Virus record (IMG/VR): IMGVR_UViG_3300047510_001751
Span: 64,001 to 128,000 of that record
Reading direction: 5' to 3' (one strand)
Origin: a virus
DNA length: 64,000 nucleotides
Shown here: positions 37,160 to 54,107 of the stretch, one piece after another
Layout: the number at the start of each line of letters is the position of its first letter
Position numbering within the stretch: position 1 is the stretch's first letter
Program-made: the position numbers and the translations under genes
Notes under the pieces: model-generated
Seen by the model: only the letters and a program-made list of their open reading frames with translations
Database searches by the model: none
What the model was told of the DNA's origin: nothing

Positions 37160-37990
37160 TTATCCGATCATATCCATTGGAGGTAGGGAGTAATCTGTGA
37201 GCATTCTTGCTTCTAGATCTTTAACTTCATTGTCGCCATCCTCCCAGATCTGACGACCATTTAATGTAATGCCACCAGGCAATTGAACGTTATTATATTT
37301 GATGAGGTTCTGACCCCACTGACGCTTCATTAAGGCAGTGGCGTAACGCTTAACAAAACTATCATTCCATACCTGACCCCATTCTGCTGGATCTAAAGCA
37401 CGATAGCAATCAATAACCAGATAGTTGCCCTCAGTAATTCTATCAACATCAATGTCAAGATATAATCTATCTTGTCTCTTGTTGAAACGAAACTCAACGA
37501 GAGCACCAGTGTTAATGACCATATCGATATCTTCAAAATATCTTTTGATCATGTAGTAGTTTGCTAGGTCAAAGTGACCAAAAGTATAACCAGCAGAAAA
37601 TGAAAAGATATCCATGAGGAAATACTGATTACTAAATCCCCACATGTCATTACGAGCAAAGTTAGAGGTAACACCAAATACCTTTTGTATACCAATTACA
37701 TGATCTGGTACTTCAATGAAATTTTTTCTATTAATCCATTCTGATCCATCTGGATCTGCTGTGTTAGTAAGTTCGTCTGTTTCTTTAAATCTTGTTACAT
37801 CATCGGCAGTAATTTGATGCTTGAGATACATTCTCTCGATGCCATCAAAGTGATACTCTTGGTAATATTGGATAGCAGTATCAATAATATCATCAACTTG
37901 ATCATCATCAATATTAATTTGTAGCACAGGAGCACCTAACTGTCTCTTACAGTAATTAACTAGTTCCTGTCTTGATGATGGCTTTGCCAT
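37160..37990 (-). CDS. gp13: Neck protein (T4 gp13)
   Basis: LGAPVL.IN.DDDQ, YATAL.KRQWGQNL.KY...LPGG.TLNG. Confidence 0.95.
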   Translation of the reverse strand: MAKPSSRQELVNYCKRQLGAPVLQINIDDDQVDDIIDTAIQYYQEYHFDGIERMYLKHQITADDVTRFKETDELTNTADPDGSEWINRKNFIEVPDHVIGIQKVFGVTSNFARNDMWGFSNQYFLMDIFSFSAGYTFGHFDLANYYMIKRYFEDIDMVINTGALVEFRFNKRQDRLYLDIDVDRITEGNYLVIDCYRALDPAEWGQVWNDSFVKRYATALMKRQWGQNLIKYNNVQLPGGITLNGRQIWEDGDNEVKDLEARMLTDYSLPPMDMIG

Positions 37991-38002: not shown

Positions 38003-38036
38003 AAAAAATCCCTACCTGTATTTAGCAGATAGGGAT
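38003..38036 (-). terminator. Terminator whose loop holds the gp13 late promoter (CTAAATA)
   Basis: Minus strand ATCCCTATCTG-CTAAATA-CAGGTAGGGAT followed by T-run. Confidence 0.75.
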
Positions 38037-38056: not shown

Positions 38057-38242
38057 TTATTCTGCTGAAGCTTCTTCTGTCTCTTCTGCTGGAGGATTGA
38101 GAAGAGCTAGGGTTTCAAGACCACCCTGAAGTTTCAGTTTATATTCTTTTGCTTTTTCGAGGTTTGCTTCGAGTTCGAAAATTTGCTTTTCTGCTGTAGC
38201 AAGTTGCTCTTCGAAGTTCTTTTTGAGTTGTTCAGTGTCCAT
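38057..38242 (-). CDS. Small coiled-coil protein (61 aa)
   Basis: MDTEQLKKNFEEQL...LKLQGGLETL; TATAAATA at 38272-38279 upstream supports the ATG at 38242. Confidence 0.75.
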   Translation of the reverse strand: MDTEQLKKNFEEQLATAEKQIFELEANLEKAKEYKLKLQGGLETLALLNPPAEETEEASAE

Positions 38243-38270: not shown

Positions 38271-38948
38271 TTATTTATATACCTCCATAAAGTAAACCAT
38301 AGTGTGCCTAACATCAGTTGCCCATCTGGGACCTATTGTTGAAGCATGATGAACATTACCATCGTATATAATTAATCTATTATATTTTGCTGGCAAAAAT
38401 CCAATTTTATTTACATCAGAATGCTCTACCCATGATTGTGATGTTTTATGTAATCCATGTTTATTAAATATTGCTGTTCCATCAGTATCGTCATATTCTT
38501 TATTAAAATATGTAATACTTGCTATAGTATTTGGACCATCTTGATGAGGACCGTAGTAACAATTTTTGTATTTTAAATACGCTTCTGGCGTTATATTAAA
38601 TAAATTATTTGACAACAAAAATGTTTTTTCCGTTGATATATCTACAGGAATTAAATTAAAACATTTGTTTACTATATCTTCTAAAACAGATATAAACAAT
38701 TCTTTTTTGTAAAAAACAAATTGTGACCTACCATCATAATACTCCGTTCCATTGGCAGGAACATCATACGCTCCCGCTAATTTTACAGTTGGTATTTTTA
38801 AAGCTAACTCATGTATTTTATCAGGATACGTCCAAAAATCATCAATAACTAAGTAATCTCCCCACGTATCACTATAAACTTTAACGTCAAAATTATTTAC
38901 GGAAAAAATATCCGAAGTAATTAAATCAGGTAAATTAATATTATTCAT
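38271..38948 (-). CDS. 2OG-Fe(II) oxygenase-like protein (DUF6445-like)
   Basis: PHQD (HxD)...YNRLIIYDG..HHA...R; VIDDFW..PD motif. Confidence 0.75.
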   Translation of the reverse strand: MNNINLPDLITSDIFSVNNFDVKVYSDTWGDYLVIDDFWTYPDKIHELALKIPTVKLAGAYDVPANGTEYYDGRSQFVFYKKELFISVLEDIVNKCFNLIPVDISTEKTFLLSNNLFNITPEAYLKYKNCYYGPHQDGPNTIASITYFNKEYDDTDGTAIFNKHGLHKTSQSWVEHSDVNKIGFLPAKYNRLIIYDGNVHHASTIGPRWATDVRHTMVYFMEVYK

Positions 38949-39535
38949 ACAAATCTAGGACCTAATATCCATCCAACCAAAGATTTTCTATTACCTTTTT
39001 TTACTTTTAAAACTCTATGTTTTAATGAGCTATCAAATACAGCAATAACTCCTCGTTCTTTTGGCACAGTAAATAATTCATTAGTAGATGAAGACATTAT
39101 TTGAACATCACCACCTTCATATTCAGATGGATCCGATAATTGTAATGTAAAAGATAATTTTCTTACATCTCCATTTTGATATGGATTGATAGAATCTGTG
39201 TGCCAATTATAAAATTCTCCTTCGGAATATGTAGTATATTGAATTTGATTTTGATCGAAAGAATGAATATTATAATTAAAATTTTCTTTATTTGCTATTT
39301 TTATAAAATAATCACACATAGCCCCAACCCACGTAGAAGAATTAATAAATTGAATTTTACTTTTTCTTATATTTAAATTTACTCCCTCTCCCGTCATTCC
39401 GTAATCTAATTCATCTTCATTCACATTAAAATTATTTTTTAATTCCTTTTCAATAATATCAACTATATCTTTGGGCAATCCAGTGCTAACCCAATACATA
39501 TCAAATTTTTCTGACGGCGAATTAAATTTAAGCAT
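38945..39535 (-). CDS. 2OG-Fe(II) oxygenase (PKHD/prolyl-4-hydroxylase-like)
   Basis: YNWHTD, RKLSFTLQLS....YEGG, HRV..V..G.RKSLVGW. Confidence 0.92.
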   Translation of the reverse strand: MLKFNSPSEKFDMYWVSTGLPKDIVDIIEKELKNNFNVNEDELDYGMTGEGVNLNIRKSKIQFINSSTWVGAMCDYFIKIANKENFNYNIHSFDQNQIQYTTYSEGEFYNWHTDSINPYQNGDVRKLSFTLQLSDPSEYEGGDVQIMSSSTNELFTVPKERGVIAVFDSSLKHRVLKVKKGNRKSLVGWILGPRFV

Positions 39536-40112
39536 TACTGTCCTCCATAAAAGATTTTAATATATCCTGAATATAAATATTACCCTCACCGCCATCATAT
39601 TGAAATACCATAGTCAATCTTCCGTTAGATTCAGATAAACATGTAGATGGTCTAGATCCGTGATGTAAAGATGTTGGAGCAATAACAACTCTACCTGGCT
39701 TGGGTAAAACCGAAATTGTAAAATCTGGGTTTTCTGATTTCGAAAAATATGTATCACCTCCCCAATGTTGCTCCCATTTAGTGTTTAGATATACTATAAA
39801 ACTAATTCCGTATGGGGTATCATAGCAATCTCGATGAGTGTCACAAAAATCTAATTGTTTAAATAAATTAATCAATACTCTATTAAAATTTGGGATATCA
39901 AAAGAAAAATTTTGTTTTAATTTTTCCAAAACCAAATTTACTACAAAATCATCTTTTTCTGGAAAGGCAGTAAAACTAGAAATTCTGTTTGTTATATCGT
40001 TAGTTAATCTATAAATTTGTAATCCATACGCCCACTTTTCTAAATCTTCAATTTCTTCTGGTAAAAAAATGTCATCAACAATAATGACATCTTCAATGTA
40101 ATTAATTTTCAC
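39528..40112 (-). CDS. 2OG-Fe(II) oxygenase (prolyl-hydroxylase-like)
   Basis: THRD, IVYLN..W...WGG.T.F, PKPGRVV....HHGS...R. Confidence 0.9.
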   Translation of the reverse strand: MKINYIEDVIIVDDIFLPEEIEDLEKWAYGLQIYRLTNDITNRISSFTAFPEKDDFVVNLVLEKLKQNFSFDIPNFNRVLINLFKQLDFCDTHRDCYDTPYGISFIVYLNTKWEQHWGGDTYFSKSENPDFTISVLPKPGRVVIAPTSLHHGSRPSTCLSESNGRLTMVFQYDGGEGNIYIQDILKSFMEDSNA

Positions 40113-40728
40113 GACTATAAATGCTCCGAAACCATCCAGTTAAAATATATTTGTTTTTTGTAAATACTGTATTGCCTCTATGTAAATGAGTATAAGCAGC
40201 GGGCCAAATGAGAGTAGTACCAGCGGTAGGTTTAACTCTTAATTTTTGATGAAAAAATTCTGTTTCAGCTTCTCCATCAGGCATATCATTTAAATAAATC
40301 ATCCATGCTACATGCCTACTATTAAAAAATTGAGATGATCCCACACGTTCAGTGTGCCAAACATGATAACCTCCCCCAGGCGGGGTTCGCTGCATTTTAA
40401 TTTCCGTACAGGCTAAAGCAGTTGTATTTAAATCTGGATATTCTTTAGAATATTTGTCGTATGCTATTTGTAAATATTCGTAACAAGTATCAGATAATCC
40501 ATTATCTAAAATATTTAAAAATATTGAAATATCATTTCTTCCAGTTATACCCAAATTAAATTGTTTATCACCTGAAGATATTACGGTGTCATCTTCTGTA
40601 GTGTAATTTACATCTCCAAAATTCATTAATTTTTTGTTTGTTGTAAATTCAAACCATTCAATATATTCTTCACATAATTGTTTAGGCAAAAGATTTTCAA
40701 AAATTCCAATATGATCAATTATTTTCAT
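40102..40728 (-). CDS. 2OG-Fe(II) oxygenase
   Basis: GGGYHVWHTE, MIYLND, KPTAGT.LIWPA..THLHRG...KYILTGW. Confidence 0.92.
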   Translation of the reverse strand: MKIIDHIGIFENLLPKQLCEEYIEWFEFTTNKKLMNFGDVNYTTEDDTVISSGDKQFNLGITGRNDISIFLNILDNGLSDTCYEYLQIAYDKYSKEYPDLNTTALACTEIKMQRTPPGGGYHVWHTERVGSSQFFNSRHVAWMIYLNDMPDGEAETEFFHQKLRVKPTAGTTLIWPAAYTHLHRGNTVFTKNKYILTGWFRSIYSREN

Positions 40729-40748
40729 AGTTAATTTTTATCTACTAG

Positions 40749-40755
40749 TATTTAG
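40749..40755 (-). promoter_or_regulatory. Late-type promoter CTAAATA for the oxygenase cluster
   Basis: CTAAATA overlapping the adhesin stop, about 21 nt before the ATG at 40728; same variant precedes gp13 and the gp67-like gene. Confidence 0.55.
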
Positions 40756-42332
40756 GTTGTCCCAGAAACAGTTCCTGTGTATGAATATGTATATGCTTGA
40801 TTTGCTCTGACTGCTCTTCCAGCAGCTCCCCCTGTTCCTCCACCTGCTGCACCCCAATCACCTCCAGACGCTCCTGGATTTCCAGCACCACCAGTATTTC
40901 CTGTTGCTCCAGTATTTCCTCGTGCTCCAGAATTTCCTGAAGCACCTCTACTTCCTGCATTTCCTGCCGCTCCAGCAGCACCATTGTTTCCAGGATTACC
41001 GTTATTCCCTCTTCCTCCAGCATTACCAGTGGCTCTTACCGTTTCTGAACTATTCGAACAGTTAGTGTTCCTCCGACTAGTTACTTGTCTTGTCCAAGAA
41101 CCAGGAGCTGTATTTGTTCTTCCAGCGTTACCAGGCGCACCAGCACCACCAGCACCAGCACCAGATCCAGCAGTTCCAGCAATACCTGCGCTTCTTGTCC
41201 ATGTTGTTGGTGAGGCAAGACCAGCGTTTCCTGGAGTGCCAGCAGTGCCAGCAGAACCAGTGCTGCCAGATAACCCAGCATTACCTGTTATTGGTCCTGT
41301 TAAATTATTATATCCTCTTCCAGCGCCTCCAGTTCCACCAGCACCGCCTGCTCCACCAGCACCGCCTGCTCCACCAGCGCCACCAGTTCCACCAGCGCCA
41401 CCTGGACCACCTAATCCATTTTGACCAGGATTTCCTGAATTACCTGGATTACCTCTAGCACCACCAGCACCACCAGTACCAGCTCCACCTGTTGTAGATC
41501 TAGAACCAGAATTAACAGGTCCACCAAGACGCCTGTTACACTGGGTGGGGAAACTAAAGGGAGACCATCTTTGTGTTGTTCTGTCTGGTCTTGTTACTGT
41601 AACATTATTTCCATTTGCTCCAGTATTTCCAGGATTTCCAAATGCTCCAGCCGTTCCAGCAGTTGCTCCATTACCAGCAGCTCCAGTATTTCCAGTATTT
41701 CCATTGGCTCCAGTATTTCCTGCTGCTCCAGTATTGCCAGGAGTGCCACTATTACCCCCTGTACCACCACCACCACCGCCTCTAATGGAACCAGTAGAAC
41801 CACTTACTGTGTAACCAACTACCGAAATCAGAACAGCATCTCCTCCAGGATTTCCTGCTACTCCAGCAGCACCTCCTGTACCTCCCCCACCATAAATGTT
41901 TCCGCCAGAAACTTGAATATTTACATTTCCAGCAACAGTTCCCGTACCAGATGATAGTGCTGTATTTCCAGCTGAAGTAGCTCCAACTGTACCTGTAATT
42001 ACCACACGTTTAGGAATTACTTTATTGTAGTTACTATTCCATTGAGTTAATGTAGAAATAGTAACATTTGTATCAGTTCCAGATTGTGTTACTACAGATT
42101 CTTTTATTGTATTTCTGTATTTACTAGCAGATATTAGAGCATTGGTTGTAGGAACGGCAGCATTTTCAGTAGCATCATAAATGTATGGTGCTACTGTAGT
42201 ATTAGTTGTTTTTCTTTTTAATTCACTATATGAAATTGAACCTGATGTTGTTCCTTTGTAAGTGTTTCTTAAAGCACTTAAGGAAATAGCACCAGATCCA
42301 AAATTAGTTGTGGTACTGGACGTAATAGCCAT
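40752..42332 (-). CDS. Gly-rich distal tail adhesin (gp38-like) with extended G-X-X repeats
   Basis: NIYGGGGTGG...GGDAV...SIRGGGGGG and terminal GGDWGAAGG..GGAAGRAV resemble T-even gp38; long G-X-X tracts; lies right after an S74-chaperone fibre. Confidence 0.7.
   Translation of the reverse strand: MAITSSTTTNFGSGAISLSALRNTYKGTTSGSISYSELKRKTTNTTVAPYIYDATENAAVPTTNALISASKYRNTIKESVVTQSGTDTNVTISTLTQWNSNYNKVIPKRVVITGTVGATSAGNTALSSGTGTVAGNVNIQVSGGNIYGGGGTGGAAGVAGNPGGDAVLISVVGYTVSGSTGSIRGGGGGGTGGNSGTPGNTGAAGNTGANGNTGNTGAAGNGATAGTAGAFGNPGNTGANGNNVTVTRPDRTTQRWSPFSFPTQCNRRLGGPVNSGSRSTTGGAGTGGAGGARGNPGNSGNPGQNGLGGPGGAGGTGGAGGAGGAGGAGGAGGTGGAGRGYNNLTGPITGNAGLSGSTGSAGTAGTPGNAGLASPTTWTRSAGIAGTAGSGAGAGGAGAPGNAGRTNTAPGSWTRQVTSRRNTNCSNSSETVRATGNAGGRGNNGNPGNNGAAGAAGNAGSRGASGNSGARGNTGATGNTGGAGNPGASGGDWGAAGGGTGGAAGRAVRANQAYTYSYTGTVSGTT
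41335..41370. repeat. Exact 18-nt tandem repeat (2 copies plus degenerate flanks) in a poly-GGA coding tract
   Basis: ccaccagcaccgcctgct x2. Confidence 0.9.
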
Positions 42333-42333
42333 A

Positions 42334-45300
42334 TTACTTATTCTTTAATGACTGTACTTCTTCTTTGAGTTCTTTAATAGCTTCAATTAGTAGTGGAACT
42401 AATCTTTCATACTGAACGGCAAGATAACCATTATCTCTTTCAATTACTGCTTCTGGGAGAACTTCTTTGATCTCTTGAGCAATAACACCAGCTTCACGCT
42501 TAGTTGTATCCTTGCCTTCCGCTAATTCATTCCAATTATATTTAACACCAGAAATCTGTGTTACTTTATCTAGAGCATTATCAATCGTTTCGATATTTGT
42601 CTTTAATCTTCTGTCAGATGAAGCAAACGCTGTAATATCACCTGTACAAGACAAATCACCTGTATTGCTAATCCAAGCTACGTCAGAACTACCTCTACGG
42701 AATCTTACAACTTCAGTTGAACTTGCTCCAGCATTAATATACCATCTGTTTGAATGGTACTCAAGCTTACCTTCGCTAGCACCAGCATCGCCAGTCCAAG
42801 TAGCAACGTTATCTTGACGGAAAGAGCTAGCTCCTCCTAGACGAAGAACACTGTTAGTTCCGCTAGTAAATGTGAATTGAGCACTACCAGCAAGAGCACC
42901 ATTGTTATTATATTGAACCTGAGTATTAGATCCACCAATATCAAATGTTGCCCATTCAATACCAGAAGCAGTTGATTTAATAAATTTACCAGCTCCACTA
43001 TTAGCTAAGAAAATAGTTGCTCCGTCTCCAGATTGATAAGGAACACTGCCAGCAGCACCGCCAGCAAGATTAGTGGCGGTTGTTGCTGTTGTAGCGTTAC
43101 CACTCAAGGCAGCAGTAATAGTACCAGCAGAGAAGTTACCCGAAGCATCTCTGGCAACAAGATTTGTATTACCAGAGGTTGAAGCAGTAACATTAATTGT
43201 TCTTGCTGTGCCACCATTAAATGTAGTGCCAGCGTCATAAGTTAGATATGTTCCAAGTGATAAAGCAGCAGCAGTTGAAGCAGTGATTGTAATGTTAGCA
43301 CTGCCATTAAAGGATACTCCGTTTATTGTTCTGGCAGTTTGTAGTGTCGTGGCAGTAGAAGCGTTACCACTTAAGGTGGCAGTGATAGTACCAGCAGCAA
43401 AGTTGCCAGAACCATCTCTCTTAACCAGCGTGTTATTCGTATTTAATGAAGAAACTGGGTTATTGCCTGTGTGTAAAATAGTGTACTTAGTTGAAGTACC
43501 AACGGACCATCCACCCCAGAATAAATCGTTAGTAGCACCATCAAGACCAAAGTAACCAGCGTAATCTCCAGATACGTGGAACGTTAAGAAAGCATCTCTT
43601 CCAGCAGTATCATTGAAAATAGTTAATGTTTTATTACCAGAACCAGAACCTTGATCACCAGAAGTAGTGTTAATAAGTACTTGATTGCCAGCCAAGAAAG
43701 TTAAACTTCCTGACATAGTATCACCAGACTTCAATACGTTTAGAGAAGCAGCTCCAGTCAAGGAAGCGGTAATTGTCCCAGCAGCAAAGTTACCAGAACC
43801 ATCTCTTTGAACAGCAGTGCTAGCATTGTTTAATGAGGAGAACGTAATATTACCAGCATTCCAAATTACGTTGCTGTTTAATGTAAGAGCATTAGCGTTT
43901 CCTGCTAAAATATTTAATGATCCACTACCATTGGCTGAGTTTCCGCCAGAAACAGCAAGACGTACATTATAAAGACCAGCAGGAGAACTACTAGATCTAA
44001 AATCAATTACTGGAACAGAAGCAGTTCCATCAGTTCTTCCAAGTGATAATCTAGCAGTGCCAGAAACAGATTCTAGTTTAGCAACATCAAATGTTCCAGC
44101 AAAATCACTGATATTGTAATCATTAATAATTTCATTTGTTTGTGTATTACCAATTCGGAAAGCAGCAGCAATATTACCAGATAATAATCTACCAGTTAAG
44201 ATAGTATAATCTAGAGTGTCATCAATATTATTTGAAGTTGATACATTAAGAAGTTCAAAATCACCAACTTTAATACCAATCGAATCAAATAAATCAATCG
44301 TTAATCCAGATACAAATGGTGCTTCCGAAAGAATCTTACCAGAAATATAAACATCAAAGAATGTTTGAGCAACATAAGATTTTACAGTTAATGAATTATC
44401 AACTGATGTAGATCCCAAGAAAGAAGAAATGTGGGAAGGACCAATGATACCAGAATTAATATTATAAGCATTTTGATAGAAAGTACCTTGTCTGCCATCA
44501 AGTAGGTCGGCATCCATTCCAGTGCCAACACCATCATTAATAGAAGTCCAAACTTTAGCCCAGGTGCTGAATGAAGCAACACCAGAACCAGAACCACGAA
44601 TCCATAGGTTATTGTTATCAGTGAAAGCTAATTGCCTTACGCCACCACCAGAGGCATCAGAACCAGTACCAAATTGACGGAATGTAATTACACCGTGTCT
44701 TGTACCACCATCGGCAAGACCGTCAGCAGTATTGTTTCTCGTATCAGCAATAACACCTTCATTGAAAGTTGATGGAGATGGCGATGAAGATGGGTTATTA
44801 ACGCTTGTTGTTAATCTGAGAGTATTAGCTGATTGACCAGAGATATCAATGCCATACAAACCACTACCTAGTTTATCTGGGCTAATAGAAAGATTAACTA
44901 AATTCTGACCATCTCTATAATATAAACCTTGTTGACCATCGAGTAAGTCGGCATCAAGACCAGAACCAGTACCAGTTTTAAGTTCTACTGAACCATCACC
45001 TGAATCTCCAATGTTAAATTGTGACTTTTTAAACCTAGCAACGCCAGTGTTGCCATATTCATTAGCTTCAAGAGTTTTAGCATCAACACGCTTAATGTCG
45101 ATACCAACATTAGCAAAGTTTTTAACACTTGTATTTGTTTTTGCTTCAAGAACAGCATTAGCACCCAAACCAATTTGAACTGGCATTTGAGTGATAGAGA
45201 AATCTGATGAATAAGCACTACCTCCACTAGTTACTAGTACAGTTGTGATGCTACCACCTTCAATGGTAAAGTTAGCTTTTAAACCACTTCCTGTACCACC

Positions 45301-48300
45301 AGAAACTGCTAGATCAAAATATTGTCCATCAGTAAATCCAGTACCACCAGAAGCGACTAAAATTTTATCTACAAAATTACTTAAAGTAAGTGTAGCATCT
45401 AGTAGAACAGGAGATTCTGGTCTACTAAATTCAATAATGGTATTTTGTGTAATAAGTTGGGTTACTGATGTTGAAAGAGTAACAGTAGTAAATGAAACGT
45501 TATTAACTACTGTTACAAATGTATTTGCTACAGTAGTTCCTGTTGGAACACCTGGAGCTATTACCAAATGACCAATTAAAATTTGGTTATTTAATTTAAA
45601 TTGTAATGTATTTTGATTTGCTGCTGTTTGATCAGTAGTAAAATCAAAATATCTTTCTTCTGCTGGTTTGATTGATTGTACTGCTAAAGCATAAGAAGAG
45701 TCACCTCTCAAGAATGAGAAGGAGTTAGCTTCTCCAGCATTACCAGCAAGTCTGGAAGATGAAATAATACCAGAAGTAATATCTTGTGCTGAAATTGAAG
45801 AAGTGGAAAGTGATACCCAGTTACTTGGATTAGATCCAGAAGTATTAACTGTTCTTATTACAGGTACAGTAACTGGAGAAACGTTAGTAGATTGAATTGT
45901 GTCAGTATCAGCAATCTTGATGTTGTTTACAATATCAATATAAACTCTAGATTCAATTAAACCATTTGCTTCTGCTTGTACACCGCCCACTCCAGGGGCA
46001 GAGAACGAAATTGATGGAGGTGAAGTATAACCAAATCCGCCTTTGTAACCATTATAATCTACGATAGTTACTGTAACTACTCTTCCATTAACGACAGTAC
46101 ACGAAGCTTGGGCTGATACTCCTCCTGGTTGATCTGGAGCACTAATAGAAACTGAAGGAGGATTTAAATCGTCATAACCATTACCTTGGTTAGAAATACT
46201 AATTCTATAAAGAACACCTTGACGATATTCTGTAACTTCTCCTTGGCCAGTAGAAAGGCTGCCAGTAATAAACGCCCCAGTAGCAAACTCTAAGTCAGTA
46301 TTTACTGAAATACCAATAAACTGACTTTCTAAATCATTATTTAAAATATATGATGTGGTTGTTCCAAGTTCAATAGCAATGTCACCAGCAAGTGGACCTT
46401 CTAAAGCAAGTCTTTCTGCTGTAGTTTGAATCGTAAATACGTTGAATGGTCTTAGAGCTGGAATTTGATCTAGAGAAATCTTACCAGAATCAGTAAGTTC
46501 TACAAGGTTTCTTGGAACGGCGTTGGTTGAATATGGTTTGTTGAGGTATTGACCTAGGTTATTTGAAATGTAATCTTTAACAGCTTTCTGTGTTGGAATT
46601 TTACTATCAGAAGAGAAATTACCACCAAGAGTGTTAGAAGCATCGAAACCAGTAACAACAACGTCACCTCCTTTTAGCTTAAGAAACTCAACTTCCGAGA
46701 TCGAAACCGTACCAGTGAAGGTAATGTTACCAGTTCTGTTCTCAATCTTAGCAAAGTAACCTACTTTAAAGTCACCAAGTTCATCCGTACCAGAAGTATA
46801 AACACGACCGTAAGCTTGAGATACTTGCTCAAATGCTTCATTTTTAACGCCACCATTTTCTGGGAGTGCTCTATAGTCGTTACCAGCACCAGCATATTCC
46901 CAAGTGTGGGAAGATGAGTTAACAATTGATGGTCTGTGTAAACGAATTTGCTTGCCAACTAGTTCAGCATTACCAACTGTAATTGCTTGACCATTACTCT
47001 TTCTTTGGAGAAGCATTGCTTCATTAATATCAATAGTCGAAGTAAATGGAGGACCAACAGTAGTTAATCTTACGTTATCAACAAAATATTCAATATCAGA
47101 ATCTTGGTTTTCGTAATCAGCAAATTTAACAATATAGTGCTCAAGAGGTTCTCTTCCGAGACCACCAACAGTAAATACAGTTCTACCTGTAGCAGTTGTA
47201 GTTACATTAGTAATTGTACCAATATCAAATGCGTATGGATCTTTTCTGAATCCTCTAGCTCTTAGAGCATATGTACCAAAGTTGGTAGCTGAGTTTGTAA
47301 CAGAAGCATAACCACCAGTATCAGCATAGATTCCATCCTGAGCAAATAGAACGAATACAGAAACTAACTGAACATATCCATCATTTACAATTCTATAACC
47401 AGTACCACCGAAGGAAATAATGGTAAACTGAGCAGCAACCATCGACTTACCCTGATTTGGGAAAGTAGCTTTTGGATCAGCATTTCCAATTGGTGGATTT
47501 AGACCTGGACGTGGGCAGTTTGGTTGACGTATTTTATCTCCGTCAATTTCACAACCACCACCACCAAGGAATGAAATTACAGAGGCGTTTTGAATATATG
47601 GAGATGCCTCAATGAATGGAAGATCCAAGTAAATAGAATCTACGTTAACTCTCTTATTGTCAGCATCATAGATTGTATTTTCTGGGAATACAACTGTTGG
47701 TTCAAATAAAGTACCGAAACTCTTTTCTACTACGCTACCATTAGCAAGAATATCATCTAAAATGCTAAACGCTGTTGTAATAGTAGTAGCAACGTTAGCA
47801 CATGTTGGAGTATTTGTATCAACAATTGTAGTTGAATCAATGAATTGAGGAGCCGTAGCAAATTCTGGAATATAAACAACGCCAGTGCCATCGCCAGTCT
47901 TCCAATTTCTCATAGCAAGGATTGCTAAATCTCTTGCTTTAGTAAATGCTTGTCTAGTTGGTAGTAGTTCACTTTGTGGAATACCAGTTAAGGCATTTCC
48001 AGTGTAATAAGATTCTCCTGAAGTAACAATACCAGCATTACCACCAAGAATTAAATCTCTTCTGAGAGCACCCAGAATAAATCCAATATCTCTACGGCAC
48101 TTAATAGTGGTAGTAGTTAAGAAATCTCCTTCATTAATAGCAGGAAGTGAAGTTAAATTACCAGCAGCAATAGCAGTTGTAGCAATAGCAATAAGAGTAC
48201 CAATGCTATTACGTACATCAATACATGAATCTGGATTATTGTTATTGTTTAGTTCTCCTTCTACCCCATAACCAAATACAGTTGGAAGATATCCAGGATT

Positions 48301-51300
48301 TGGATCACCTGTAATTGTTAAATCTCTTTCATTTAGCTGATTGGTTACAGCTAATCTCATTACATCTCTTGCTTTGTTGAAGGCAGTGATTGACTGTGAA
48401 GTTTCTCCTACCAATCCATTTGAAAGAGGAATTGTATTAGTTAAGAAATATCTCTTGGTTGCTCTAATAGTATTCTTGTTGCCACCATCATATAAGTCAG
48501 AAGCAACAGCGTCAACGATATAACCAATGTCTCTACGGCACTTGCTTTCGCTAGCAAAATAAGTAGTAGCAGTCTCAGCAGGTAGACCAGTTAGATTACC
48601 AGCACTAATTCTATCTGTGATGAGTGTAGTAAAGTTAGTAATTGCTGTCTGAACATCTGAGCAAGCAGCAGGATCTGTATTAGCTACATTTCCACCGCCA
48701 CCACCGTAGGTAGCAGGACCAGTGCTGACTGTAAGATCCTTATAGTATAAACCGTTATAAACGGCAAGCTTCATCATGTCTCTTGCTTTATTGAAAGCAA
48801 CTACAGACTGTGCTTCTTCTCCTAATAAACCGTCAGAAATTGGTGATCCGCTATTAAAATATTGAAGAACAAAATTTCTCGAATACTTGTTGCTTCCAGA
48901 GAAAAGATCTAGAGCAATAGCATCAACAAAGTATCCAATATCTCTACGGCACTTGAGATTACCACTTGCTTTTCTCACAGCAGGAAGACCTGATGTATTG
49001 CCAGTTTGAAGTGTAGTTGTGAGAATAGAGACAAGGTTGCTAACAGCAGTTCTAACGTTAGCACATGAAGATTCGCTAATGTTAGATAGTGTATCTGGAT
49101 CTGCTGTAATAGTTGTATCCTTAACATATAGCTGATTTGTTAAGGCTTTGTTCATCCAATCTCTTGCTTTGTTGAAGGCAACAATAGACTGTGATACTTC
49201 ACCATCCAATCCATTTGTTAATAGAGTGGTAGCATTTTCAAAATATCTGAGGGTATAATCAATAATTCTTGAGTTACCGCCTGTTTGAATATCATAGGCA
49301 ACAGCATCTACGATGTAACCGATATCTCTACGACACTTAGCTTCTCCAGCAGGAGTTACGCTAGCACCTGTAGTAGTTGGTGGAAGAACATTAGCACCAT
49401 TAATATTGCCAGCAAGTAATCTTGTTTGAGCAATAGTTGCTAGTGTTTCTACGGCAGTTTGTACATCAATACAAGCAGCGGCATTTCCTGATTCTAGAAC
49501 AGCAATATCTGGACCTGGAACACCATAAGAAGCAGGACCAGCAGTTATAGTAAGATCCTTTATATAAAGCTGATTACTTACAGCTTTCTTCATCATTTCT
49601 ACTGCCATAGTAAAAGCAGTATCAGCTTCTGATTCTTCTCCAGATAATCCGTTGGCAATTTTAATACCAGTTTCTGGATCAAAGTATAATTTAGTAAATC
49701 CTAAAGTAAATTGGTTGCCACCATCATAAATGTCTAGAGCAATAGCATCAACAAAGTAACCAATATCACGCTTACACTTAGCTTCGCCAGCAGTTACGAA
49801 AGAATCTCCAGTAGTTGGTGTTGGTAGAGCATTAGCGCCATTAATATTACCAGCAGTAATTCTGTCGGTGATTAATGTGGTGAGTGTTTGTAGTGCTGAT
49901 TGAACGTCAGAACAAGCTGTTGGGTCGGTATTAGAAACTGATCCGCCACCACCACCATAATTAGTAGGACCAGCAGTTACACTAAGATCTATGTAAGCTA
50001 ACTGATTAGTTACAGCTAAAGCACACTGCTCTCTCGCTTCATTAAAAGCAAATACTGATTGAGCAGTTTCTCCTACTAAACCATTAGAAATAGCTAAACC
50101 ACTTCCATCAAAATAAAGTTTTGTGAAAGCAATTGAATACTGGTTTCCTCCAGTTGCCATGTCAAGAGAAATGGCGTCAACAAAGTAACCAATATCACGC
50201 TTACATCTAGCGTCGTCATTACCAGGCACAGTAAATCCTGGGTATTGTGTTTGCATTGAAGCAAAAGCATTATCAATAATTAATGTTCTGTTCTTCTGAA
50301 TTAAACGATAACCATCTTTAAATCTAGATCTAGCGTTAGTTTGAGCATCACCAGGATAGTAAAAATCTGGATAATCTACAGCAATTTGTGCTGCTGCTCT
50401 ATCAATAATTTCTTGACGATTCTGTTGAATTAATCTGTAACCATCCTTAAATCTTGATCTAGCAGTAGTTTGAGGATCATTTGGATAGTAGAAATCAGGG
50501 AATTGAATAGCAATCTCAGCAGCAGCTCTTACCTTAATTTCTTCTTTGTTTGCTTTGATTAAATTGGCAGCATCATAGTATCTGCTCTGGTAATCTCTGT
50601 TTATATTTGGAAGACCAATTAGGTTTCCAGCAGTTAATCTTGTAGTAATAATTGCTGTTAGGTTAGCAATGTATGTTTGTACATCAGAACAAGCAGTTGG
50701 ATCTGTGTTAGGTACTGTAGTGCCACCAGAAGCATAGATAGCAGAACCAGCAGTTACACTCGTATCAGTTACACCAAGCTGGTTAGCAACTGCTTTCTTC
50801 ATCTCATCTCTTGCTGAATTAAAAGCAAGAACAGATTGTGGAATTTCACCAGCTAATCCATTAGTAGTCAAACTACCAGCATTATCAAAATATTGCTTTA
50901 AGAAAGCAATAGAATTTGAATTGCCTCCTAAGAATACATCAAGAGATACAGCATCAATAAAGTAGCCAATATCACGCTTACACTTAGTACCATCTGGATC
51001 GGCAGGAATAGAGCCACCAGAAGAAGTATAAGCAGTGTCAATGATAGCAGTTTTATTTTGCTGAATTAAACGATAAGCATCAGCATAACGGGAACGCTCG
51101 TTAGTTTGTAGATCACCTGGATAATAGAAATCTGGATATTGTACAGCAATTTCAGCAGCAGCTGTATCAACAATAGTTTCCTTATTCTTTTGAATTAAAC
51201 GATAAGCATCATTGTATCTGCTTTGAGCATTAGTCTGAGTATCACCAGGATAGTAAAAATCTGGATGCTCAACGGCAACTTCTGCTAAAGCACGGTCAAG

Positions 51301-54051
51301 AATTTCTTCTCTGTTAGCTTTAATTAGATTTGTAGAATCCTTGTATCTGGCAGCAGAAGCATTAGGACTGATAAAAAGTTCTGGATAAGCGTCTTCAATG
51401 TATCGTGAAGTTTCTTGCTTAATAAACTCTTGGTTTCTAGCAATTAAATAGCTAGCTTCTACAAATCTATCTGTTTGGTTATTGGAAATAATAGCAATGA
51501 AGAGATTTGCTAAGTTATTAATAGCAGCTTCTACGTTAGCACAATAAGGCCAAACAGAATCAATTGTTACATCTGGATCGAAGTATCTAGAAATATTAGA
51601 AAACTGAGGAGAATACAAATCGTCATTTTCATTAATTCTCCATCCTCTCATAGCAAGGACAGCTAAATTTCTAGCAATATCAAATGCTCTAATTGTTTCT
51701 GAAAGTTCGGTAGCAATATAGCCAATGCCAGTACCTAAAACATAATACTTAGCAGCTTCAATAGTGTTATGGTTTCCACCATATTCCATATCACGAAGAA
51801 TAGCACTTACAAAGTGTCCGATATCTCTAATACACTTTGCTTCGTTTGGATTGGTAAATTCAGGAAACTCAGCAATTACTTGCTTATAAGTTTCATCTTT
51901 GATAAACTCAAGATTATTCTTAATTAGATTTCTAGCATCTTGATATCTTCTAGAAATATAAGGAGTAGCTTCAAACTTGTTTGGTGAGTTTAAAAGAGAT
52001 AGAGTTACATAATGTGATACAGGAGAAACTGTAGCATTTGCTGGAGTGTAATTGCTATCAGTAAACTCAGGCATGTTATCTTTAGGGATAACAAATCTTC
52101 TAGATCTACTATCATCATCAATTAGCACACCAACTTTATCAAGGTCGTAAATCCTTTGAATGCCATTTAAGTTTGCTAATTCAGGAGGAAGACCAGAAAT
52201 TCTAACTTCTTGACCTTCGTGAAAATCATGAATATTATCTATACCTTGTAATTGATTTGTATAGAAAATAATACCACCAACTTGAGCTTGTTGAGAAGCA
52301 TCAATTCTTACAATTGGGAAAGTTGTTGTTGTATCAGTTCCATGTTCTACAACTTCGCCTTCTGGTCTGATAGATGAAAGATCTACAATAGTAAAAGTAA
52401 ATTCTTGTGCCCAATCAGATCCATTCCAAGTATATGTAATACCATCATTTGGATGGGTGTATACATCACCAATTGATGGTGACGATGGCCACCCAGTATA
52501 TTCTACGGGAGCTTCAATATAATAACGAACACTTTCACCCTCAGCAAATACACCAACAGAAGTCTCAAAATCAACAGAACCTTTTTGATATGCTGTTGGT
52601 CCTGTAGTCGAATCAAAAGTTACAACTTTAACAGAACCAATAGCACTAGTGTTTACACCGTTAATTGTTTCTCCAACAACTAACTTATTACCGCCAGCAT
52701 TAAAATCAAATACTGCTCTAAAAAGTGTTTTGCCGAAAATTTGATGACCAATAGGGAATCTTCTCTTGAAGTCTCCTCCGTATGTTGGATCATAATATAA
52801 TCTTTGCTTATCATCAAATACACAAGCAAAGTTCCATGTGGATACGGGATTACCCAGAGTGTCTAGTTTATCCCTAAAGACCATACCAGTGATATAGTTT
52901 TTATCGGCAAACTTAAATACGTTTTTACCAGGATTGTTTGGTCTTACAATTACAATTCTAAGCGAGTCACCAACAACCGAACAATCGGGTGGAATAGAAA
53001 TTGGGTTATCTTCTACATAATCACCACCAGCGATAATAACAGTTTCTTTTATATTTCTAGATTCTGTAGCAATTTGACAACCACGTTTGATTGTTCTTAC
53101 GGGAGAAGCTACAGATCTACCATCATTTTCATCATCACCAATTTGCTGAGAAACATAAACACGACCACCAACGTCATTGGTAGCAAGATTTAATACGTAT
53201 TCAGTGGTAGCAATTTTATTTGAATTATCTCCTAGAGGAGGAGTGATAGATCTTGGCCAAGAAAGTTCACCAAAATATGGTTGGTTTGAATCATTTACAC
53301 GGAAACCAACATGCTCTAACTGAACTGTTCCATTGGTTACTATTCCCTCAGTATGTAATGGAGGTGTTGTTCCAGTAATGCCAGTATTTTTTGCTCTATA
53401 TAAATTTCCTTCGAAATAACGGATAGCATTTTTCGTTAACGAAACATTCGAAACCCAAACTTGTTCTGAATTATTATCAAATAATTTAAGATATGGTGCT
53501 CTAATATTAAGATCCGCAGTTACAAAATTTTCTAGGTCTAGATTAAGAATACGAGCAGTATCTGAAATGATAGATGAAGACGTTCTAATAGCACCGTTTA
53601 CATCAATTTCATAATCGATAGTATCCAGTGTACATGTCGCTACAGCACCGCCACCTGTAGTATCACCCTCGGCATTTTGAATTGTGATTGAAGGTGGTGT
53701 GGAATAACCAGATCCTGGATTAGATACAATAACAGCTATAACTCTACCGTTAGATAAAATTGTGCTGGCGGTAGCTTGAATAGAACCGATACCAGCGGGC
53801 GGAGGATCTATAATTACTAAAGGGGGGGAAGTATACCCCGTTCCTTGGGCAGTGACATTAATATTATCTACACGACTTCCTGTTCTATTAACACCAATTC
53901 TTGGTAATTTGGTAGTTGAATCAATTAAAGCTCTAAAAACTTCCTTTTCATCAGATCCTTGACCCGATCTAATTATAAAATTATCGCTACCAATAATATT
54001 AGGCGAATCAGATTTGATGTATTGCTTATCAGAATTAAATTCTAATCCCAT
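42334..54051 (-). CDS. Giant tail fibre/structural protein (3905 aa) with C-terminal peptidase S74 intramolecular chaperone
   Basis: C-terminal SDRRLKTNI..I.NAL.KV..I.GV.Y.W...GVIAQE...V.PE.V...LAV.YERLVPLLIEAIKEL; DADLLDG fibre repeats; beta-helix-like segments. Confidence 0.9.
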   Translation of the reverse strand: MGLEFNSDKQYIKSDSPNIIGSDNFIIRSGQGSDEKEVFRALIDSTTKLPRIGVNRTGSRVDNINVTAQGTGYTSPPLVIIDPPPAGIGSIQATASTILSNGRVIAVIVSNPGSGYSTPPSITIQNAEGDTTGGGAVATCTLDTIDYEIDVNGAIRTSSSIISDTARILNLDLENFVTADLNIRAPYLKLFDNNSEQVWVSNVSLTKNAIRYFEGNLYRAKNTGITGTTPPLHTEGIVTNGTVQLEHVGFRVNDSNQPYFGELSWPRSITPPLGDNSNKIATTEYVLNLATNDVGGRVYVSQQIGDDENDGRSVASPVRTIKRGCQIATESRNIKETVIIAGGDYVEDNPISIPPDCSVVGDSLRIVIVRPNNPGKNVFKFADKNYITGMVFRDKLDTLGNPVSTWNFACVFDDKQRLYYDPTYGGDFKRRFPIGHQIFGKTLFRAVFDFNAGGNKLVVGETINGVNTSAIGSVKVVTFDSTTGPTAYQKGSVDFETSVGVFAEGESVRYYIEAPVEYTGWPSSPSIGDVYTHPNDGITYTWNGSDWAQEFTFTIVDLSSIRPEGEVVEHGTDTTTTFPIVRIDASQQAQVGGIIFYTNQLQGIDNIHDFHEGQEVRISGLPPELANLNGIQRIYDLDKVGVLIDDDSRSRRFVIPKDNMPEFTDSNYTPANATVSPVSHYVTLSLLNSPNKFEATPYISRRYQDARNLIKNNLEFIKDETYKQVIAEFPEFTNPNEAKCIRDIGHFVSAILRDMEYGGNHNTIEAAKYYVLGTGIGYIATELSETIRAFDIARNLAVLAMRGWRINENDDLYSPQFSNISRYFDPDVTIDSVWPYCANVEAAINNLANLFIAIISNNQTDRFVEASYLIARNQEFIKQETSRYIEDAYPELFISPNASAARYKDSTNLIKANREEILDRALAEVAVEHPDFYYPGDTQTNAQSRYNDAYRLIQKNKETIVDTAAAEIAVQYPDFYYPGDLQTNERSRYADAYRLIQQNKTAIIDTAYTSSGGSIPADPDGTKCKRDIGYFIDAVSLDVFLGGNSNSIAFLKQYFDNAGSLTTNGLAGEIPQSVLAFNSARDEMKKAVANQLGVTDTSVTAGSAIYASGGTTVPNTDPTACSDVQTYIANLTAIITTRLTAGNLIGLPNINRDYQSRYYDAANLIKANKEEIKVRAAAEIAIQFPDFYYPNDPQTTARSRFKDGYRLIQQNRQEIIDRAAAQIAVDYPDFYYPGDAQTNARSRFKDGYRLIQKNRTLIIDNAFASMQTQYPGFTVPGNDDARCKRDIGYFVDAISLDMATGGNQYSIAFTKLYFDGSGLAISNGLVGETAQSVFAFNEAREQCALAVTNQLAYIDLSVTAGPTNYGGGGGSVSNTDPTACSDVQSALQTLTTLITDRITAGNINGANALPTPTTGDSFVTAGEAKCKRDIGYFVDAIALDIYDGGNQFTLGFTKLYFDPETGIKIANGLSGEESEADTAFTMAVEMMKKAVSNQLYIKDLTITAGPASYGVPGPDIAVLESGNAAACIDVQTAVETLATIAQTRLLAGNINGANVLPPTTTGASVTPAGEAKCRRDIGYIVDAVAYDIQTGGNSRIIDYTLRYFENATTLLTNGLDGEVSQSIVAFNKARDWMNKALTNQLYVKDTTITADPDTLSNISESSCANVRTAVSNLVSILTTTLQTGNTSGLPAVRKASGNLKCRRDIGYFVDAIALDLFSGSNKYSRNFVLQYFNSGSPISDGLLGEEAQSVVAFNKARDMMKLAVYNGLYYKDLTVSTGPATYGGGGGNVANTDPAACSDVQTAITNFTTLITDRISAGNLTGLPAETATTYFASESKCRRDIGYIVDAVASDLYDGGNKNTIRATKRYFLTNTIPLSNGLVGETSQSITAFNKARDVMRLAVTNQLNERDLTITGDPNPGYLPTVFGYGVEGELNNNNNPDSCIDVRNSIGTLIAIATTAIAAGNLTSLPAINEGDFLTTTTIKCRRDIGFILGALRRDLILGGNAGIVTSGESYYTGNALTGIPQSELLPTRQAFTKARDLAILAMRNWKTGDGTGVVYIPEFATAPQFIDSTTIVDTNTPTCANVATTITTAFSILDDILANGSVVEKSFGTLFEPTVVFPENTIYDADNKRVNVDSIYLDLPFIEASPYIQNASVISFLGGGGCEIDGDKIRQPNCPRPGLNPPIGNADPKATFPNQGKSMVAAQFTIISFGGTGYRIVNDGYVQLVSVFVLFAQDGIYADTGGYASVTNSATNFGTYALRARGFRKDPYAFDIGTITNVTTTATGRTVFTVGGLGREPLEHYIVKFADYENQDSDIEYFVDNVRLTTVGPPFTSTIDINEAMLLQRKSNGQAITVGNAELVGKQIRLHRPSIVNSSSHTWEYAGAGNDYRALPENGGVKNEAFEQVSQAYGRVYTSGTDELGDFKVGYFAKIENRTGNITFTGTVSISEVEFLKLKGGDVVVTGFDASNTLGGNFSSDSKIPTQKAVKDYISNNLGQYLNKPYSTNAVPRNLVELTDSGKISLDQIPALRPFNVFTIQTTAERLALEGPLAGDIAIELGTTTSYILNNDLESQFIGISVNTDLEFATGAFITGSLSTGQGEVTEYRQGVLYRISISNQGNGYDDLNPPSVSISAPDQPGGVSAQASCTVVNGRVVTVTIVDYNGYKGGFGYTSPPSISFSAPGVGGVQAEANGLIESRVYIDIVNNIKIADTDTIQSTNVSPVTVPVIRTVNTSGSNPSNWVSLSTSSISAQDITSGIISSSRLAGNAGEANSFSFLRGDSSYALAVQSIKPAEERYFDFTTDQTAANQNTLQFKLNNQILIGHLVIAPGVPTGTTVANTFVTVVNNVSFTTVTLSTSVTQLITQNTIIEFSRPESPVLLDATLTLSNFVDKILVASGGTGFTDGQYFDLAVSGGTGSGLKANFTIEGGSITTVLVTSGGSAYSSDFSITQMPVQIGLGANAVLEAKTNTSVKNFANVGIDIKRVDAKTLEANEYGNTGVARFKKSQFNIGDSGDGSVELKTGTGSGLDADLLDGQQGLYYRDGQNLVNLSISPDKLGSGLYGIDISGQSANTLRLTTSVNNPSSSPSPSTFNEGVIADTRNNTADGLADGGTRHGVITFRQFGTGSDASGGGVRQLAFTDNNNLWIRGSGSGVASFSTWAKVWTSINDGVGTGMDADLLDGRQGTFYQNAYNINSGIIGPSHISSFLGSTSVDNSLTVKSYVAQTFFDVYISGKILSEAPFVSGLTIDLFDSIGIKVGDFELLNVSTSNNIDDTLDYTILTGRLLSGNIAAAFRIGNTQTNEIINDYNISDFAGTFDVAKLESVSGTARLSLGRTDGTASVPVIDFRSSSSPAGLYNVRLAVSGGNSANGSGSLNILAGNANALTLNSNVIWNAGNITFSSLNNASTAVQRDGSGNFAAGTITASLTGAASLNVLKSGDTMSGSLTFLAGNQVLINTTSGDQGSGSGNKTLTIFNDTAGRDAFLTFHVSGDYAGYFGLDGATNDLFWGGWSVGTSTKYTILHTGNNPVSSLNTNNTLVKRDGSGNFAAGTITATLSGNASTATTLQTARTINGVSFNGSANITITASTAAALSLGTYLTYDAGTTFNGGTARTINVTASTSGNTNLVARDASGNFSAGTITAALSGNATTATTATNLAGGAAGSVPYQSGDGATIFLANSGAGKFIKSTASGIEWATFDIGGSNTQVQYNNNGALAGSAQFTFTSGTNSVLRLGGASSFRQDNVATWTGDAGASEGKLEYHSNRWYINAGASSTEVVRFRRGSSDVAWISNTGDLSCTGDITAFASSDRRLKTNIETIDNALDKVTQISGVKYNWNELAEGKDTTKREAGVIAQEIKEVLPEAVIERDNGYLAVQYERLVPLLIEAIKELKEEVQSLKNK
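43100..43810 (-). repeat. Three RD(G/A)SGNF(A/S)AGTITA fibre junction repeats
   Basis: QRDGSGNFAAGTITA, KRDGSGNFAAGTITA, ARDASGNFSAGTITA; similar at DNA level. Confidence 0.85.
48080..51840 (-). repeat. Helical repeats in the giant fibre (8x [K/R]CxRDIG[Y/F/H], 4x PDFYYP..QT...SR[Y/F]..YRLIQ)
   Basis: Counted in the translated ORF. Confidence 0.85.
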
Positions 54052-54100: not shown

Positions 54101-54107
54101 TATTTAT
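54101..54107 (-). promoter_or_regulatory. Late promoter ATAAATA (giant fibre)
   Basis: ATAAATA in the 54051-54114 gap. Confidence 0.65.

Follow-up and report, generated by a model that had tools for sequence, protein, structure and literature searches.

We analysed a 64,000-nucleotide stretch of viral DNA, positions 64,001 to 128,000 of IMG/VR record IMGVR_UViG_3300047510_001751 (the window), in which the gene for a glycine-rich protein of 526 amino acids (aa), here named G526, is followed by four tandem genes, ox1 to ox4, that encode three Fe(II)/2-oxoglutarate (2OG) dioxygenases and a probable fourth. The source is a 128.8-kb IMG/VR contig of a T4-like cyanomyovirus with an estimated completeness of 66%. 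The cultured phages nearest to it are Synechococcus phages such as S-PM2, and a near-identity DNA search among isolate phages gave no match, the matches being short and distant only. The number of Fe(II)/2OG oxygenase genes in a cyanomyovirus ranges from one to 24, and the role of these genes has been an open question since the first genomes. A 2022 paper states that the functions of these oxygenases "have not been specifically investigated" (PMC9602691), and the use of a viral prolyl 4-hydroxylase is said to remain "cryptic" (PMC9301287). The present locus, together with its relatives, offers a concrete candidate substrate in the form of a gp38-type adhesin and the neighbouring fibres.

The whole region lies on the minus strand in the order giant fibre, G526, ox1, ox2, ox3, ox4, small gene, terminator, gp13 and gp14. 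The G526 gene (40752..42332), assigned to the gp38-type fibre-tip adhesins by comparison of its AlphaFold2 model with S16 and PP01 gp38 and by composition, is followed by ox1 (40102..40728), encoding a 208-aa dioxygenase of prolyl-4-hydroxylase type, ox2 (39528..40112), encoding a 194-aa dioxygenase from a GTG start, ox3 (38945..39535), encoding a 196-aa PKHD-type (PiuC-like) hydroxylase, and ox4 (38271..38948), encoding a 225-aa DUF6445 protein that is the probable fourth dioxygenase. Successive oxygenase genes overlap by 11 nt (ox1/ox2), 8 nt (ox2/ox3) and 4 nt (ox3/ox4). Upstream, at a distance of 1 nt from the G526 gene, stands the gene for a 3905-aa giant tail fibre (42334..54051), which is preceded by an ATAAATA box at 54107 and ends in an S74 intramolecular chaperone (Pfam Peptidase_S74, E 2e-20 on the last 500 aa). 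Downstream follow a small coiled-coil gene (38057..38242; 61 aa from the likely start at 38242), which matches phrog_580 (E 1e-19 over residues 22-82 of an 85-aa open reading frame (ORF)) and is by synteny the homologue of S-PM2p095, an intrinsic terminator (38008..38036), and the gene for the gp13 neck protein (37160..37990; phrog_211, 2e-46; S-PM2 synteny), which marks the downstream boundary and is followed by another neck gene, gp14. A preliminary description of this DNA had placed an S74 fibre directly ahead of the 526-aa ORF, had noted the overlapping stops and starts, and had closed the unit with the small coiled-coil gene and a terminator; all of these elements are found, the last two as the phrog_580 gene and a hairpin with a T-run at 38036..38008.

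The glycine-rich protein and the four oxygenases

G526 is 26% Gly and 10% Asn and contains 74 G-X-Y triplets, with seven runs of 4-19 triplets and nine Pro residues at Y in the context G-X-P-G, which confirms the G-X-X tracts with Pro at Y and the abundance of Asn reported in the preliminary description. A homologue search with the N-terminal 190 residues found 32 proteins, 29 of which carry a precomputed PF05268.19 (GP38) label, and the S-SRM01 homologue is annotated "gp37-gp38 adhesin tip complex". A Pfam scan of G526 and of the scanned homologues gave no PF05268 match; the precomputed label thus not being reproduced, fold comparison was used. For G526, an AlphaFold2 model from 38 sequences has confident regions at 1-215, 305-375 and 465-526 and a predicted local distance difference test score (pLDDT) under 50 in the inserts 220-304 and 380-457; its conserved Gly-rich stretches have pLDDT values of 91-98 with no helix or strand assigned by DSSP. 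Foldseek returned S16 gp38 and PP01 gp38 only. In VIA-align comparisons the model matched S16 gp38 (6f45_D) with a Z score of 18.1 over 223 of 248 residues at 26% identity and the receptor-binding domain of PP01 gp38 with a Z score of 16.6, the next-best match reaching 6.4. A fold test covering the N-terminal attachment domain, the beta-helical part and the polyglycine sandwich agrees with a gp38-type protein over the whole chain. We conclude that G526 is, in its predicted fold, a gp38-type fibre-tip adhesin with a polyglycine core, which bears out the earlier identification of the ORF as a Gly-rich tail-tip adhesin.

Members of the adhesin family share a skeleton in which an N-terminal domain is followed by the motifs GGDA, IYGGGGGG, GRGYN and GGDWG, with variable inserts between them and invariant Gly columns. 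The inserts consist of G-X-Y runs and Cys/Arg/Trp loops in the G526 lineage and are Cys-rich in most relatives, and the G-X-Y runs of G526 are lineage-specific expansions around the polyglycine core. In most relatives the gp38-like gene comes after an S74 fibre plus a fibre protein of 500-900 aa. We rejected collagen as the main reading of G526: the protein scores 19.8 bits against Pfam Collagen (PF01391), below the cut-off of 27.2, its fold is that of gp38, and its profile matches to collagen in the PDB are artefacts of G-X-Y periodicity. The longest G-X-Y runs (19 triplets) lie partly within the confidently modelled gp38-type core, in a model of the monomer, which could not show a triple helix. 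ORFs of 50-146 aa in other frames and on the plus strand inside the G526 gene (40904-41954), with Pro-rich or Leu/Glu-rich products, are by-products of the GGN/GCN repeats and not genes. The 322-aa "tail assembly chaperone" of ACG-2014i was also considered as a gp38 homologue and rejected (hhalign probability 0.1%, 3% Gly).

The oxygenases are assigned by family matches and conserved residues. Against Pfam 2OG-FeII_Oxy_3 (PF13640; cut-off 27 bits), ox1 scores 39.6 bits (E 1e-9), ox2 35.5 bits (2e-8) and ox3 58.8 bits (1e-15), and ox4 scores 33.4 bits (5.8e-8) against DUF6445 (PF20043; cut-off 24) with a further match to phrog_274 (1e-4). Mutual identity among the four is 12-24%, and the metal triad and the 2OG-binding basic residue are invariant within each family (6-35 homologues each): H125-x-E127...H181/H183...K193 in ox1, H93-x-D95...H151...R165 in ox2, H112-x-D114...H173...R183 in ox3 and H135-x-D137...H201...R214 in ox4. 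The earlier claim of four tandem, divergent 2OG-Fe(II) dioxygenases with intact HxD/E...H...R/K residues is upheld by these matches, identities and triads.

Searched against the PDB, the ox1 family profile found only the prolyl 4-hydroxylase (P4H) of Bacillus anthracis (BaP4H; 8e-7) and the viral collagen P4H, vCPH, of PBCV-1 (3e-5). The AlphaFold2 model of ox1, the one oxygenase that was modelled, has a pLDDT of 83.5, shows a double-stranded beta-helix and gave 404 Foldseek matches in the PDB at E <= 0.001; the top fold matches were PPHD in complex with EF-Tu (4iw3), vCPH, a Dictyostelium PHD, BaP4H, CrP4H, PHD2 and human C-P4H-II, and the best 50 or so of at least 500 fold matches were prolyl hydroxylases, not AlkB-type enzymes. 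By sequence and predicted fold, ox1 is an enzyme of prolyl-4-hydroxylase type. The ox2 profile matched a "putative hydroxylase" in the PDB (9blq, 5.5e-7; a literature search on this entry found nothing usable) and, weakly, Tpa1, PPHD and PHD2; ox2 is also a distant relative of a 174-aa oxygenase in the marine cassette described below. For ox3 the profile matches were 3dkq (1e-23) and PiuC (7e-20), then P3H1, vCPH and PPHD, and its sequence assignment as a PKHD/PiuC-type hydroxylase is clear. Sequence and profile searches with ox4 found nothing in the PDB; hhalign of ox4 with ox3 gave a low probability (5.8%), the catalytic motifs nonetheless being in register, and ox4 belongs with the viral DUF6445 clusters listed in the atlas, one of which is automatically named P4H. 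From the motif register, phrog_274 and the atlas, ox4 is probably the fourth dioxygenase.

Several PHROG/RefSeq names sit on dioxygenase-like proteins at this and other loci (window positions 38271-40112; Syn9 gp46 and gp51-54, locus L168; locus L002): "DNA endonuclease V" (phrog_274), "minor coat protein" (phrog_1644), "DNA endonuclease" (phrog_2297) and "ferrochelatase" (phrog_3531). These names are probably propagated mis-annotations.

Late-type boxes and the fibre slot

The CTAAATA late-type box that the preliminary description had set before the enzymes is present on the minus strand at 40749..40755, 20 nt 5' of the ox1 ATG, and its position is conserved across the lineage. NTAAATA stands at the same distance before ox1 in every lineage relative (L003-L009), in two of which it does not overlap the adhesin stop codon and is kept all the same. 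A further late-promoter-like box, TATAAATA (38272..38279, minus strand), lies within the end of ox4 ahead of the small gene, and a late-type box at this place is conserved in all lineage relatives. More generally, NTAAATA boxes are found nearly all on the gene strand, 15-35 nt 5' of structural gene starts (fibre, gp13, gp18 and others), and the eight copies of CTAAATA in the window are all on the minus (gene) strand, 18 being expected over both strands together. The published late motif of S-PM2 is NATAAATA (PMC2984593), so CTAAATA is a near variant of that motif rather than the exact motif; a literature search on CTAAATA found nothing usable. Apart from a weak candidate inside ox2, the stretch running from the fibre gene to the close of the unit is free of terminator-like sites. 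Taken as a prediction from sequence, late expression of the unit is well supported. At the downstream terminator the CTAAATA box of gp13 (38025..38019) lies in the hairpin loop; in the relatives L003-L009 an NTAAATA box in the loop is kept, and the stem carries compensatory changes in five of them.

Nine related contigs keep the order fibre, adhesin, ox1-ox4, small gene and gp13, their protein identities falling as low as 40-53%. The corresponding slot of S-PM2, from the giant fibre to the small coiled-coil gene (L001:12261-15307, p092-p094), holds three Laminin_G_3 lectin-like virion proteins and no oxygenase, and the adhesin and enzymes therefore look like a unit that is exchanged whole. The slot between the fibre and the small gene is an exchangeable receptor-binding cassette.

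Linkage of oxygenases to adhesin and fibre genes

Two surveys of related loci address the association quantitatively. The first covered 80 IMG/VR loci with ox1 orthologues, representing 60 distinct upstream contexts, and in 52 of the 60 the gene directly ahead of the ox1 orthologue encodes a large fibre-like protein or an adhesin, most of the gaps being 0-16 nt. The preceding gene in these 52 contexts is a Collar-domain fibre ending in ...KYIIKAY (42 contexts), a gp38-like gene (4) or another large protein (6). The gene after the ox1 orthologue is a 322-aa annotated tail assembly chaperone in 40/60 contexts, one variant of which matches Pfam Phage_tail_APC, and a second oxygenase lies within 2.5 kb downstream of the ox1 orthologue in 43/60. 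A widely conserved marine cyanomyovirus cassette (L032-L104; for example L002:6674-14198) runs from the Collar-domain fibre ending in ...KYIIKAY through a P4H-like oxygenase and the 322-aa "tail assembly chaperone" to a second oxygenase, a third oxygenase, a 115-aa protein and a 282-aa protein. The present ox3 and ox2 are distant counterparts of its second and third oxygenases, and the cultured Syn9, S-CAM and ACG-2014 isolates carry a related fibre/oxygenase/chaperone cassette.

The second survey started from 63 loci with gp38-like genes, reduced by dereplication to 44; at 21 of the 44 a member of the four oxygenase families lies no more than 3 kb away. Thirty-five genes of these families lie within 10 kb of a gp38-like gene, 28 of them within 1 kb and five at 1-2 kb; none lies at 2-3 kb, and the remaining two fall in 297 kb of flank beyond 3 kb. 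Expressed per 10 kb, the density of oxygenase genes is 3.45 within 1 kb of the gp38-like gene and does not exceed 0.1 at distances greater than 2 kb. The arrangements include an ox2-like gene upstream with an ox1-like gene downstream, ox3-ox2 downstream, ox4 directly downstream, and ox3 directly after adhesins with 68-100 G-X-Y triplets; at the more distant locus L021, three oxygenases of ox4 and ox2 type come after a gp38-like gene that has no long G-X-Y runs. The sides, orders and family combinations vary, and the linkage therefore appears to have been rebuilt or reshuffled several times rather than inherited as one arrangement. The preliminary description held that its proposal would fall if oxygenases did not co-occur with Gly-rich adhesins; the clustering seen in about half of the 44 distinct loci is such a co-occurrence. 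The P-SSM2 gene PSSM2_036 and small ORFs after the adhesin of locus L022 were considered as further oxygenases and rejected, having no Pfam support.

Two other gene families recur beside gp38-like genes. A small DUF6171 (PF19668) gene almost always follows gp38-like genes elsewhere (L019, L021, L023, L024 and most of L105-L167), sometimes in two or three copies; DUF6171 was not found in the contig studied here, where the oxygenases occupy that position, and the protein could be an adhesin partner or chaperone. Tryptophan halogenase genes likewise recur at this site (L024, which is S-SRM01; L106-L127; L158-L161). The only Trp_halogenase gene of the present contig (G000:C1:120266-121504) lies about 37 kb beyond the end of the window, and there is none in the unit.

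Interpretation and comparison with known systems

The unit can be read as the fibre-tip module of a T4-like cyanomyovirus, comprising a putative gp38-type adhesin and four dioxygenases that would be translationally coupled and, judged by their residues, catalytically intact. Its transcripts would be late ones, started at the NTAAATA promoter and also continuing from the fibre gene by read-through. In the infected cell the enzymes would then serve as protein hydroxylases whose substrates are freshly synthesised fibre or adhesin proteins, modified ahead of assembly or while it proceeds, and the adhesin encoded next to them is the first candidate; that there are four of them would point to several sites or several kinds of residue as targets. 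The reading we favour, although we put it forward tentatively, is that the four enzymes are made late and hydroxylate proteins of the phage itself, its adhesin or its fibres; we infer the substrate, the modified residue and any effect on stability or host range. In favour of this reading are the conserved block, the clustering of these families at gp38-like genes, the fibre context of the ox1 orthologues, the kinship of ox1 with prolyl hydroxylases, the invariant residues, the conserved late box, and the precedents of PBCV-1, mimivirus and the substrates proposed for bacterial dioxygenases (PMC2938197). The wider proposition, that T4-like cyanophages possess dedicated, late-expressed enzymes of prolyl-hydroxylase type, encoded beside the adhesin or between the fibre and chaperone genes, with which they hydroxylate the proteins of their receptor-binding tips and tail fibres, is possible but somewhat more doubtful. 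If true, it would explain a large share of the long-unexplained 2OG-Fe(II) oxygenase genes of cyanophages, would mean that phage adsorption, fibre stability or host range is also shaped after translation, and would bear on the prediction of cyanophage host range from sequence, with a parallel in PBCV-1 and mimivirus. It would also be, to our knowledge, the first enzymatic hydroxylation of a bacteriophage virion protein.

A number of observations weigh against hydroxylation of the adhesin and fibres. We found no chemical evidence of hydroxylation in any phage virion protein. No oxygenase neighbours the gp38-like gene in 23/44 loci, which continue instead with DUF6171, a tryptophan halogenase or a helicase, and S-SRM01 and S-PM2 have no oxygenase near their fibres. 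PF13640 genes are scattered, with about 9/28 fibre-adjacent in five complete cyanomyovirus genomes, and some members of the ox1 family stand in metabolic-gene islands beside CP12 and cpeT. Adhesins with and without a neighbouring oxygenase do not differ in Pro, "PG", Asn, Cys, Trp, Lys or Asp, and oxygenase adjacency is independent of the G-X-Y content of the adhesin. Among G526 homologues the X and Y residues vary freely, Pro included, so that the Pro sites are unconserved. The surveyed loci share ancestry, and the locus counts therefore overstate the number of independent events. The particular chemistry first proposed for the unit has also lost ground: asparaginyl hydroxylation is weakened by the finding that none of ox1-ox4 matches an Asp/Asn beta-hydroxylase family, and priming for glycosylation by the lack of a glycosyltransferase in the unit. 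The logic of a collagen substrate fails, since G526 misses the Pfam cut-off and its Gly motifs model as the gp38 polyglycine core. On the best reading the collagen-substrate argument is dropped, and the gp38-type adhesin and the fibre proteins are the candidate substrates.

The oxygenases might have no functional link to the adhesin at all, if the fibre module ends in a hot spot of recombination at which common accessory genes accumulate and are then co-inherited. Fibre regions are known hot spots (PMC3037559), the S-PM2 slot holds its three lectin-like virion proteins instead, and shared context among kin inflates the locus counts; against this, accessory ORFs 2-10 kb away almost never belong to these families (2/35), the linkage is found repeatedly although the enzyme families, their order and their side of the adhesin gene differ, and the block is intact down to about 40-50% identity, so that we consider a purely positional association unlikely. 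Alternatively, the substrate that the enzymes tailor might be a small molecule or a free peptide, in chemistry of the secondary-metabolite type such as Iyer et al. suggested for Syn9, and their place beside the fibres would then be a coincidence. Divergent tandem oxygenases are typical of biosynthetic clusters, tryptophan halogenases recur beside gp38-like genes, and the dioxygenase/halogenase array of Syn9, for which organohalogen synthesis was proposed (PMC2938197), includes in gp50 an orthologue of ox1. The present unit, however, lacks a scaffold-forming enzyme (nonribosomal peptide synthetase, polyketide synthase, ATP-grasp or precursor peptide), the closest solved relatives of ox1 act on proteins, and the genes, behind a late promoter, are packed so tightly among those for fibre, adhesin and fibre chaperone that the gaps measure 0-30 nt, while the Syn9 array itself comes directly after fibre and Gly-rich "tail fiber assembly" genes; we regard small-molecule tailoring as rather unlikely.

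The enzymes might also act on host proteins, EF-Tu or ribosomal proteins for instance, and by hydroxylating them adjust translation late in infection. The bacterial relatives PPHD and the B. anthracis P4H modify EF-Tu, the top fold match of ox1 is Pseudomonas PPHD with EF-Tu (4iw3; for the B. anthracis enzyme, 5v7y), and the weak profile matches of ox2 include Tpa1, a relative of ribosomal-protein hydroxylases. Host-protein hydroxylation would leave unexplained the roughly 50-fold local concentration of these genes beside adhesin genes, the position between a fibre gene and its chaperone gene and the need for four different enzymes, and host-takeover functions are usually early, whereas this unit has late-type boxes; we therefore judge it quite improbable. 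Auxiliary metabolic or repair roles, whether consumption of 2-oxoglutarate that manipulates the host nitrogen signal or repair of alkylated DNA or RNA, have precedent in the 2OG/NtcA and DNA-repair proposals (PMC3037559), and many cyanophage PF13640 genes do lie outside structural modules. The best of the ox1 fold matches are nonetheless prolyl hydroxylases rather than AlkB-type enzymes, burning 2OG alone needs no four divergent enzymes, and the tight fibre/adhesin linkage and the late boxes would go unexplained, which makes such roles very unlikely here.

Among known systems, the gp37-gp38 tip complex of T2/S16/PP01-type phages (6f45, 9v85; PF05268) shares with G526 its fold, Gly motifs split by variable segments and a place after the distal fibre gene. 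G526 differs from S16 and PP01 gp38 in being about twice as long, with inserts expanded to G-X-Y runs and poorly modelled Cys/Arg/Trp loops, and in following a fibre that ends in S74. We know of no oxygenases that accompany the enterobacterial gp38 genes. On the enzyme side, PBCV-1 and mimivirus encode hydroxylases for their own structural proteins, and PBCV-1 reportedly gave, in the work of Eriksson and colleagues in 1999 (cited in PMC9301287), the precedent of a virus that hydroxylates its own proline-rich proteins. The PBCV-1 enzyme vCPH (5c5t) and the B. anthracis P4H (3itq, 5hv0) are, like ox1, single-domain proteins of about 200 aa; ox1 differs from them in its identity of 16-20%, in having H-x-E in place of H-x-D, and in a neighbouring protein that is not a collagen. 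The ox3 profile matches PKHD-type proteins (PiuC; Shewanella Sbal_3634; 3dkq, 9qn1) over nearly their full length, and since no established substrate for PiuC-type enzymes was found in the literature, the match names a family and not a reaction.

Reports that single cyanomyoviruses carry several 2OG-Fe(II) oxygenase genes go back to 2005-2010 (PMC3037559), and Sullivan et al. (2010) proposed modulation through 2OG/NtcA, the nitrogen signal, citing Weigele et al. (2007) for DNA repair (PMC3037559). The closest published array is that of Syn9 (gp41-gp54), in which Iyer, Abhiman, de Souza and Aravind (2010) described ten tandem dioxygenases with two tryptophan halogenases and proposed organohalogen or secondary-metabolite synthesis; for bacterial operons the same authors proposed collagen-like and tail-collar proteins as substrates of the co-encoded dioxygenases (PMC2938197). 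Like ox1-ox4, the Syn9 genes stand in tandem in a T4-like cyanomyovirus and encode classical Fe(II)/2OG dioxygenases that have diverged from one another, with gp50 as the ox1 orthologue (E 5e-34) and gp47, gp51 and gp53 matching the ox2 and ox4 profiles, and they come directly after the fibre genes gp32-34 and two genes for Gly-rich "tail fiber assembly" proteins. In contrast to the Syn9 array, the present unit has four enzymes only, with no halogenase and no JmjC member, and Syn9 gp38 and gp39, unlike the Gly-rich neighbour here, do not match the profile of the gp38-type adhesin family. The annotated translation of Syn9 gp39 (L168:13150-14328) contains a Gly-rich segment of about 100 residues twice, with an odd hydrophobic joint, and could represent a pair of gp38-like paralogues fused through an error of annotation or reading frame. 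The locus is thus a small member of a published kind of array, and what is new is the gp38-type identity of the neighbouring protein and the quantitative linkage between such adhesins and the oxygenases.

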